Assembly (NCBI RefSeq): GCF_003334405.1
Contig: NZ_QOWM01000022.1
Length of the DNA: 52,139 bases
Strand: one strand, 5' to 3'
DNA from: Escherichia coli
GTDB taxonomy: Bacteria; Pseudomonadota; Gammaproteobacteria; Enterobacterales; Enterobacteriaceae
Shown: positions 37,501-40,500 of the stretch, piece by piece
Layout: each line of letters begins with the position of its first letter
Numbering within the stretch: the stretch's first letter is position 1
Program-made: the position numbers

Positions 37501-40500
37501 GTCAGCACGGAGCCGGTGGTGGTGATGGATACCATTCTGGTAGTACGACCACGTCAGGTTCAGTTTAAATGGTCCTTCGACAAGGTGACAGGAACGGTAA
37601 GTAACACTGGCAACACATGGTTTAAGCTACTGATTAAGCCAGGATGTGATTCGACCGAAGAGGAAGGCGATGCCTGGTATCTACGTCCGGGAGACGTGGT
37701 TCATCAGCCTGAGTTACGTCAGCCGGGGAATCACTATCTGGTCTATAACGACAAATTCATTAAGATTAGCGATTCCTGTCCGGCTAAGCCCCCTTCGGCG
37801 GACTAAGACTTATCCATCGGTCGAGGGAAGAATTCCACCTCAGAGCCCCAAAAATCGTTTAAATGATGTGGAAGCGATCGTCAATATCACCTGTAACGAT
37901 GGGCTTTCTCATATGCACACCATAGTGTTCAGGAGACACGGAAAGGTATCAGGCAGCCTGCTAACGAGTGGTTTAATCACGAATTAGTACGTAAAATCGG
38001 TAACGGCTGGAAATCATTCAATACTCACACTATCGAAAGTTCCCCAGCCAACCGCGGTACGTTCTTACATACGATGTACCGCTGTTCTCTTTACGATTTT
38101 TAGCTGTACTGGTGAATTATGAGCAATCTGAATCCATGCATGACGTGTGGTGCCTGTTGTGCATTTTTCCGCGTCTCTTTTTACTGGGCCGAAGCCGACG
38201 ATGCTGGCGGTACTATTCCCGCCAGGCTCACTGAACAAATATCCCCTTTTCACCGATGCATGAGCGGTACCAATCAGAAAAACCCCCGATGTATTGCCCT
38301 TGCAGGAACCCCGGGCAAAAATGCCTGCTGCACGATATATAAAAATCGATCGTCCACATGCAGAGAATTCGCCATGTCTGGTGAGAACGGAGTCGTCAAT
38401 GAGGCTTGCAATCGTGCAAGGGCTAAATACGGGCTGACACCGTTATAAACATACAATAATTAATTGCACTGCCCCGCCAGCGATAATAGCGGGGCTTCGT
38501 TTTTCAGGGGTAACAAAACCCGATACTTCTTCTATTTGCCAGCAACAATGCCTCTCTTCTGTAGCGTTCTTCGGATCTACATCATCCTGAAGTAGCGCGA
38601 TATACTCACTGACTATCTGCATCAGAATATAAAAAGCAATGTTTTTAACCTATAAAAATGGCGCTGTATTTGCGCCATTTTTATCATTCAATGCATTATC
38701 TGTTTGAGCCTAAAGGGATCTCAGGGTCTGGCTCATGAGTAATTCTGTTTCGTAAATCTCTGCGAATAATTTCAATAGACCAGAACCAGACTAAATGTCC
38801 AAAAATTTCAGAAACATTCTCATACCACGGGAGATCAAACAGAGGTGGCGTCAGTCCCATGAGAGGGAATGAAATCATATGAACAAAAAGTTGGGCTAAA
38901 GCACCTGCCAGTAAGCCCTGCCAGAGTTTAATTTTTGGAAATACTTCAGCGACCACACAATAACCGACAGCAAACACTATCGAAAAGATAATGTGCGTAA
39001 CACCAACCCAGTTAAAGACATGCCCGGCAAAGGTATAAACAGCCGCATTGGGATCTGTCAGCCCCAACCAGTCTCGAAGAAAAATATACGGTGGATTGAG
39101 AAAATTACGCGAGCAATCAATTTGGCCTGCAGCCCTGATTAATGATTCCGGGCCACACGCTGCATTAAACATATCCACCGGGCTACGTGGCGGCAATGGA
39201 ACTTCAGCCCCCCACTTCACGAATGCGGAAACAACGCCAGCAATCAGCCCAATGAATGCAGCAAGACCATAACGTCTGCGGTTCGGTGGAGTTTGTTCAA
39301 ATATATTCATATCTACCCTGCTTGTACCATTATGTTATACACCTCTTCAGGAGTATTCATAAAACAAGGCAAATGTAAAGAACTGTATTGTTTTGTATAA
39401 CAAGATAGTTTCCTAATCGCCAATGAATATAAGCTCCATCATTTCTCCCTATTTTTATATTAGAAGTGACAGAGATTTGCAGGGTGATGTAGAGCTGAAA
39501 ATCACAGGTTTCCTTATTGGTTTTTGCATCGTACAACTAAAGCAATAAACCAGCTCCCATCATCATCAACATCCCGGCGAACATGAATTTATTAGCCGGG
39601 CTCATAGCTGCATTCGCGTTTTAAGAATAATCCTCCTGCTGTCGCCGACTATGCTTAACGTTTAAAAAAGCATCAGCACTCTCGCAACGCACTCTTATTT
39701 TCCCCTTTAGAATACCGGAGGCCTGGTATGAGCAACCAAGGCGAATACCCCGAAGATAATCGGGTTGGGAAGCACGAGCCGCACGATTTAAGTTTGACCC
39801 GTCGCGATCTGATTAAAGTGAGCGCCGCAACAGCGGCGACCGCCGTGGTTTATCCTCATTCTACGCTGGCGGCAAGCGTTCCGGCAGCTACACCCGCGCC
39901 AGAGATAATGCCCCTGACACTGAAGGTGAACGGCAAAACCGAGCAGCTTGAGGTGGATACCCGAACCACGCTACTGGACACTTTGCGTGAAAATCTGCAT
40001 TTGATCGGTACCAAGAAAGGTTGCGATCACGGACAGTGCGGAGCCTGTACCGTGCTGGTCAATGGTCGCAGGCTTAATGCCTGCCTGACGCTTGCAGTCA
40101 TGCATCAGGGGGCCGAGATCACCACCATTGAAGGCCTGGGTTCGCCAGATAATCTTCACCCCATGCAGGCGGCCTTTATCAAGCATGATGGCTTCCAGTG
40201 CGGCTACTGCACCTCCGGGCAAATTTGCTCATCAGTAGCGGTGCTAAAAGAGATTCAGGACGGCATTCCCAGTCACGTCACGGTCGATTTGGTTTCCGCT
40301 CCAGAAACAACTGCCGATGAGATCCGTGAACGTATGAGCGGCAACATCTGTCGCTGTGGTGCATACGCTAACATCCTTGCCGCCATTGAAGATGCTGCGG
40401 GGGAGATAAAATCATGAAGGCGTTTACCTATGAACGAGTGAATACCCCAGCCGAGGCGGCACTTAGCGCTCAGCGCGTACCCGGCGCAAAATTTATCGCG

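Follow-up and report, generated by a model that had tools for sequence, protein, structure and literature searches.

What is a stretch of about 100 nucleotides doing both between ecpE and ykgJ, in what is usually taken as the core genome of Escherichia coli, and inside a horizontally acquired island nearby? The question is raised by a window of 52,139 nucleotides of the E. coli contig NZ_QOWM01000022.1 (assembly GCF_003334405.1), and all the positions given below without another reference are those of this window. A preliminary description had noticed the element at three sites, had pointed to matched changes in the two arms of its hairpin, and had left three options standing, a terminator-associated repeat, a small RNA (sRNA) family, or a miniature mobile element. 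We think that the element is probably a two-part terminator cassette of lambdoid phages, formed by a conserved core and a hairpin and located at the boundary between the attachment-site (att) side and the tail fiber genes, and that the copies in the window are relics of it.

RNA 3' ends at a covarying hairpin

Copies 1 and 2 share 87% identity over 90 nt (37988-38077 versus 47543-47632 in a repeat search; 86.7% over 90 nt by BLAST), and copy 3 resembles copy 2 over the hairpin only (51776-51813, 89.7% over 39 nt by BLAST), which confirms the three copies and the places first reported for them. A covariance model (R1) derived from 83 independent variants of the element scored copy 1 at 127.1 bits (E value of 2.6e-32), copy 2 at 127.5 bits (2e-32), and copy 3 at 34.1 bits (5.8e-7). 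All of them lie on the plus strand. In copy 1, the conserved core (GTAAAATCGGTAACGGCTGG...CCAGCC) spans 37991 to 38049 and the terminator hairpin with its U-rich tail 38050 to 38089. In copy 2, the core extends from 47546 to 47604 and the hairpin, with covarying pairs and one bulged G in the fold, from 47605 to 47642, while copy 3 is only a hairpin with a long U tract (51775 to 51823), between a GIY-YIG gene on the plus strand and a tfa gene on the minus strand. A fourth, weak hairpin-only relative was found at 28670 to 28708 on the plus strand (cactgcggcacgttctctcataaggcgtgcctgcagtg), where R1 matched 28673 to 28708 with 17.5 bits (E value of 0.019; model positions 65 to 100). Its K-12 site is between the ykgP pseudogene and ykgR, and no 3' end is reported there in the published Term-seq tables. 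The count of three sites holds for the full and hairpin copies of the window; it does not hold beyond them, given this weak relative and the thousands of copies present in E. coli and its phages.

A scan of viral contigs with a 25-nt exact pattern collected 129 instances of the element, corresponding to 83 distinct 120-nt variants (alignment A2). The core (GTAAAATCGGTAACGGCTGGAAATCATTCAATACTCGCACTATCGAAAGTTCACCAGCCARCCGC), of about 60 to 65 nt, is nearly invariant, and its flanks outside the search pattern are also at least 90% conserved. RNAalifold predicted the hairpin as the sole helix of these variants, with double changes in eight of its nine pairs. Doubly changed cells in the hairpin amounted to 64 against 13.3 ± 5.0 in shuffled data (none of 500 shuffles reached 64), and 92% of the hairpin cells were able to pair, compared to 23 to 58% when the partner was slid. 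Within the window, the 5' arms of the stem are CCGCGGTACG in copy 1 and CCGCAGCACG in copy 2, and their G/A and T/C differences are paired with C/T and A/G differences in the 3' arm, giving two compensated pairs. The covariation noticed at the outset was borne out by both comparisons.

The fold of copy 1 has a 10-bp stem inside a structure of -28 kcal/mol (z of -3.7), and that of copy 3 reaches -20.5 kcal/mol (z of -4.3). Overall, z ranges from -3.1 to -4.8 in the copies, which have the stable GC-rich stem-loop of intrinsic terminators, with a conserved loop of 9 to 13 nt. The stem is followed by a strong U tract in copy 3 (UUUUUCUUUUUU), a moderate one in copy 1 (UGUUCUCUUU), and a poor one in copy 2 (UUUCAACU). 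At least four T are found in the 8 nt past the stem in 53 of the 83 variants on the plus strand, and three or fewer in 81 of 83 on the minus strand; a U-rich tract follows the hairpin in roughly half to two-thirds of the variants.

The preliminary description had suggested looking for RNA 3' ends at the hairpin, and published Term-seq data place them there in both full copies of K-12, copy 1 and the copy of prophage Qin (copies 2 and 3 are absent from this strain). At copy 1, whose region is identical in K-12, core included, the 3' end maps to MG1655 304212/304213 on the minus strand, i.e., window position 38089, with scores of 87904 to 99298 in three conditions (PMC7815308). It falls 7 nt past the stem and 30 to 31 nt upstream of the start codon of ykgJ, and the source table flags it as not Rho-dependent and lists it among the 3' ends located in 5' untranslated regions (UTRs) (PMC7815308). 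The 3' end of the Qin copy maps to MG1655 1632571/1632574 on the plus strand, with scores of 2150 to 3283 (PMC7815308), 6 nt past the stem and on the element strand. Both were classed as "orphan" by Adams et al. 2021 (PMC7815308), and no opposite-strand 3' ends are reported at the element in the Term-seq tables. Since both full K-12 copies have their 3' ends on the element strand and 6 to 7 nt past the stem, the hairpin acts as an intrinsic terminator, which in vivo stops transcription of the element strand coming from the att/int/dinI side. Among the options initially proposed, these 3' ends and the position of the hairpin against gene ends support the terminator-associated repeat.

A fixed place between phage modules

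A BLASTN search, of the type proposed in the preliminary description but with copy 2 as the query, showed that 5413 of the 5426 complete E. coli genomes examined have the element, at 18305 places (median of 3 and maximum of 10 per genome), and also in 210 phage records and 80 plasmid or phage-plasmid records. The phage carriers include lambda, HK97, HK106, HK75, phi80, mEp phages, and many Stx phages. Copy 2 has 88% identity to lambda 24162-24262 and 95% to HK97 20941-21040, and the lambda copy (J02459 24162-24262, minus strand) is placed between ea31 and ea47, 3.4 kb from attP and 3.3 kb further along than sib. When about 100,000 species were scanned, each through a single genome, the exact core was confined to Escherichia, save for three small contigs suggestive of contamination or mis-binning. 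Contigs L132, from a Chryseobacterium assembly (262 bp), and L134, from a Lysobacter assembly (401 bp), have 90.7% and 100% identity, respectively, to the E. coli ecpE-ykgJ spacer, and almost certainly they are contaminants from Escherichia. Salmonella phages ES18 and SPN3UB have only the hairpin in common with the element. Judging by the sequences searched, the core would so far be known from Escherichia and its phages only.

The element occupies the same strand as int, and its position is fixed: it is preceded by sib, a dinI-like gene, or cargo close to att. HK97 reads xis, int, the attP core, sib, the element, and a convergent tfa; its sequence is identical to that of lambda through sib up to ...GCGCTAATTTTTTGTC, and then HK97 enters the element directly while lambda enters the b region. 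Downstream, the 129 instances have a convergent tfa or pin, 92 to 141 nt past the core pattern, a same-strand ykgJ homologue ca. 109 nt past it, or a tRNA- or transfer-messenger RNA (tmRNA)-like att core just past the hairpin. Where a convergent tfa or pin follows, its stop codon borders the hairpin directly. The commonest upstream neighbor is the prophage dinI-like gene, whose stop codon is separated from the element by 3 nt, and the other upstream types are sib, a lambda-like hairpin beyond sib, a lambda-type 95-nt extension, and an att-arm-like sequence (Qin and Rac). At least six upstream types combine with at least eight downstream types, as happens at the module boundaries of mosaic phages. 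The hairpin variant tracks the downstream module irrespective of the upstream one, the variant of copy 3 always accompanying the lambda-type tfa. Because the type of hairpin follows the downstream type and the upstream types assort independently, the core can be regarded as the shared joint of reassorting modules.

Two observations on the vicinity of this joint can be added. Motifs similar to TTTTGCCCC are repeated between the prophage junction and the element in Rac (contig L004, ca. 4815-4865, between ttcC and the hairpin) and in Qin (contig L001, ca. 2930-2990); from their sequence, they may be integrase arm-type binding sites. On the other hand, one variant (contig L023, 923-1042, minus strand) has the core joined straight to the sequence normally found past the ssrA-type att core, and it lacks the hairpin and the att core as if they had been precisely deleted.

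The location of the cassette is where leftward transcription, through int-xis-sib, the dinI-like gene, or the cargo of the b region, would meet the end of the rightward late operon (tfa/pin). There, the cassette would insulate the late and tail fiber genes from antisense transcription originating on the att side, and it would close the att-proximal accessory transcription unit. The core might be kept partly as homology for the exchange of modules, and probably it also has a putative role at the RNA 3' end, for example, in stability or in the efficiency of termination.

Conservation of the core was also assessed at the chromosomal locus, using seven E. coli alleles of the orthologous region that represent two or three deep haplotypes. 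Variable columns were 2 of 66 in the core and 6 of 28 in the hairpin, and the adjacent dinI-relic spacer had 20 substitution sites in 177 plus a 6-nt indel. In addition, an orthologue of the locus with 9% divergence is unchanged over the initial 50 nt of the core. This low variability suggests that the core is under constraint at the chromosomal locus.

Known relatives and competing explanations

The element shares with the intrinsic terminators of convergent gene ends its GC-rich covarying stem, the U-rich tail of many copies, 3' ends 6 to 7 nt past the stem, and its location between convergent transcription units. Unlike these terminators, however, it is led by 60 to 65 nt that are far more conserved than the stem itself, its loop is long (9 to 13 nt) and conserved, and, unlike the bidirectional ones, it has a U tract on one strand only. 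The lambda sib/tI region is on the same strand and in the same neighborhood, distal to int/attP, and is likewise a hairpin terminator met by leftward transcripts. The sequence of the element is different, though, and it lies beyond sib, sharing neither homology nor position with it: in HK97 it starts directly past the annotated sib, which is a separate 50-nt feature, in lambda it is between ea31 and ea47, and elsewhere it follows dinI with no int nearby. Mosaic lambdoid phages have been described, in the work of Juhala et al. 2000 as cited in PMC4104026, as having conserved linkers at module boundaries and terminators on the flanks of "moron" cargo. Like those linkers, the element is a short conserved junction with modules reassorting independently on either side, and like moron-flanking terminators it has cargo (ea47, ykgJ, ynfT-ydfK-pin, or defense genes) inserted on either side. 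It differs from the linkers in that it also seems to be constrained in a fixed chromosomal position, without any need for phage exchange.

As for RNA families, the Rfam search suggested at the outset gave no family over the element in the window at the gathering threshold. The best match below it was CssrB (24.7 bits versus a threshold of 76), whose last 36 model positions resemble the hairpin on the opposite strand, and the element is not a member of this family. Matches to Rfam IS009/EcsR2 adjoin copies 1 and 3, at the same phage junction, and correspond to the 3' coding part of tfa with no overlap with the element. Three further assignments were discarded. Both strands have open reading frames (ORFs) that run across the element, with a "hypothetical protein" or a partial "capsid protein" annotated there in some records, but these ORFs have no match among the PHROG families, and the variable columns, judged by eye, are not three-periodic. 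PasB, an sRNA considered as a candidate because IS009 is common near it, was rejected since its published probe sequence is absent from the element. Finally, the published Fur cluster at ydfK/ynaE falls at the translational start of those genes, outside of the element.

Several points weigh against a terminator cassette with a constrained core. The stem of copy 2 is followed by just three U, a poor terminator by sequence, and a simple terminator scan called none of the copies, probably owing to the loop of 9 to 13 nt and to the one bulged stem. The Term-seq tables have no 3' end at the hairpin-only copy of Rac, and, with a U-poor tail on the minus strand, the evidence for termination concerns the element strand and not that of the convergent tfa or pin. 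The conservation of the core in the phage set is partly built in by the 25-nt exact pattern used to collect it, and the Fisher tests at the chromosomal locus (core versus spacer, p of 0.047; hairpin versus core, p of 0.008) are soft, as the alleles fall into few deep haplotypes. Lastly, the very high 3'-end signal of copy 1 points to a discrete, abundant RNA.

This last point is the starting one for another explanation, in which core and hairpin are a discrete sRNA of ca. 85 to 100 nt, either with a promoter of its own or derived from a 3' UTR by processing, that acts in trans or as a sponge and has the hairpin as its terminator. The very abundant orphan 3' end of copy 1, with a weaker one at Qin, agrees with it, as do a predicted fold of two stem-loops and a U tail (z of -3.1 to -3.7), a core less variable than its flanks, the TAAAAT that begins the sharp 5' border of the element and resembles a -10 box, and a probably non-coding nature, given the lack of PHROG matches. 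Nevertheless, a search of HK97 and copy 1 gave no sigma-70-like promoter within the element or ahead of it, and the -35 region expected upstream of TAAAAT is not conserved, being the sib terminator in HK97. The first of the two stem-loops, a helix GGCUGG/CCAGCC inside the core that appears in single-sequence folds, can only be regarded as putative, with covariation almost nil (one pair in two sequences) and no prediction by RNAalifold. There is no Rfam family match, neither ykgJ nor ecpE has an entry among the rows listed for enteropathogenic E. coli RIL-seq (Hfq-bound RNA-RNA interactions), and the Qin signal is about 30-fold weaker, so that the abundance at copy 1 looks local. We consider such an sRNA unlikely, and the same low expectation applies to its fuller version, a conserved and abundantly expressed sRNA or 3'-UTR-derived RNA of lambdoid phages that was domesticated at ecpE-ykgJ with a sequence-specific regulatory job beyond termination. 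It is more doubtful still that the element acts in cis as a leader or attenuator of the cargo downstream on the same strand (ykgJ at copy 1) by regulated premature termination. The short distance from the copy 1 3' end to the ykgJ start, its listing among 5'-UTR 3' ends (PMC7815308), and the recurrence of the element followed by ykgJ in many prophages, with ca. 34 nt from hairpin to start codon, would fit this role, but in most copies the next feature is the end of a convergent gene or an att core and not a same-strand gene, and no alternative antiterminator pairing was found. The ribosome-binding-site region of ykgJ is not conserved among the ykgJ-type copies either, a result that also discards masking of that site by the core.

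The core could also work as DNA, either as a protein-binding site or as an arm of the integrase attachment site. Its layout is an imperfect palindrome, GGCTGG-N6-TTCAATA-N7-TATCGAA-N6-CCAGCC, which is what the folds reflect; the element lies near att, its Rac and Qin copies adjoin the repeated TTTTGCCCC-like motifs at the prophage edge, and several variants, copy 2 among them, abut tRNA- or tmRNA-type att cores. Yet the same core accompanies unrelated integration systems (the lambda core, dusA, ssrA, ydfJ, and ttcA), the lambda copy is ca. 3.4 kb away from attP, and the HK97 copy is beyond sib, a region outside the minimal lambda attP, all of which makes a DNA site very improbable. The remaining option, a generic interspersed repeat, such as repetitive extragenic palindromic sequences and their mosaics (REP/BIME) or enterobacterial repetitive intergenic consensus (ERIC) sequences, or a miniature transposable element, is effectively refuted. 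Multiple copies per genome and a palindrome are indeed present, but no terminal inverted repeats or target duplications were found, the context is always phage derived, there are only 1 to 10 copies per genome, and the MG1655 spacer has no annotated feature and the element no match to Rfam or other families; with this, the mobile element of the preliminary description falls as well. The terminator cassette of lambdoid phages is an element of a known kind with a particular conserved core that appears to be undescribed; full-text literature searches on this sequence and on b-region terminators gave no published description of it.

A fossil prophage end and the island copies

The contrast between core and acquired DNA, from which the preliminary description had argued that the element was not simply part of the island, turned out to be misleading, since the "core" copy 1 stands itself in relic prophage DNA. 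Immediately before it, at 37856 to 37985 on the plus strand, there is a frameshifted dinI-like pseudogene, which a tblastn search with a prophage DinI recovered in two pieces, each in its own frame (59% and 56% identity; joint E value of 5e-6). After it, ykgJ (38119 to 38448, plus strand) occupies the cargo slot, and many prophage contigs carry a ykgJ homologue at the same distance, partly fragmented or diverged, with the best full-length matches at 82 to 94%. Next comes a decayed 3' remnant of tfa (38491 to 38690, minus strand; Rfam IS009, 202.3 bits), which is the published sRNA EcsR2 of the yagU-ykgJ spacer (PMC4350180). IS009 also matches the tfa genes of lambda, Qin (tfaQ), and Rac (tfaR), and it looks like a 3' coding fragment of tfa and not a dedicated RNA gene. 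In MG1655, the ecpE-ykgJ spacer has no annotated feature, although the table would list repeats. Considering the dinI pseudogene, the element, ykgJ, and the tfa remnant together, the DNA between ecpE and yagU is what is left of one end of a lambdoid prophage, and copy 1 is a part of this remnant that has become fixed in E. coli; the relic stretch is present in at least 4952 of the 5426 genomes.

Copy 2 is preceded by a stretch in common with lambda (47455 to 47545, plus strand; 80% identity over 80 nt). It corresponds to the 95-nt extension (lambda 24263-24350) shared by 22 upstream variants, which contains RIGGRR- and SYKKY-like frames reminiscent of the C terminus of Pin/Gin invertases, the RIGGRR match being weak (E value of 0.088), and may be a heavily deleted remnant of pin. 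On the other side, the 3' arm of its hairpin overlaps an att core similar to the 3' end of ssrA (tmRNA) at 47637 to 47665 on the plus strand. This att core agrees in 28 of 29 nt with the ssrA 3' end of K-12, the point at which prophage CP4-57 starts; such identity is that expected of tRNA/tmRNA-type att cores. A viral contig (L045) matches this att core in 29 of 29 nt and continues with the same sequence (TCATGATTGGACGG...), and ARAGORN found no tmRNA gene in the window. By its sequence, the core is of the type used by ssrA-integrating elements such as CP4-57, and this 29-nt piece, inside the island next to yagP' and far from ssrA, resembles an att core that belongs to phage-derived DNA. Copy 3 abuts the end of a tfa C-terminal ORF (51825 to 52067, minus strand; 80 amino acids [aa]; Rfam IS009, 229.5 bits at 51868-52066), with 12 nt between the stem and the stop codon (51825-51827).

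The island between copies 2 and 3 codes for an EcoRII-like restriction enzyme (404 aa, plus strand) and a convergent cytosine methyltransferase (491 aa, minus strand) at 47893 to 50617, and for a GIY-YIG domain protein (257 aa, plus strand) at 50982 to 51755. The same restriction, methyltransferase, and GIY-YIG genes are found in strain 203740 (contig L003), broken by IS100 and IS66-family elements. Upstream of copy 2, two ORFs of 472 and 156 aa (45397 to 47390, minus strand), annotated as hypothetical proteins in a matching strain, could be defense-type cargo.

The ecpE-yagU region, usually treated as core genome, is then the fossil end of a lambdoid prophage, with ykgJ as former phage cargo, and the element accounts for a strong orphan RNA 3' end of K-12, that at MG1655 304212. 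In a genome as well studied as that of phage lambda, a core with no assigned function represents a modest but concrete gap. The joint is precise and widely shared, being the point of exchange of att, int, and cargo modules and of tail fiber modules. A hotspot of cargo and defense genes has one of its edges there, and the joint could serve as an anchor to locate prophage ends and the cargo that they carry.

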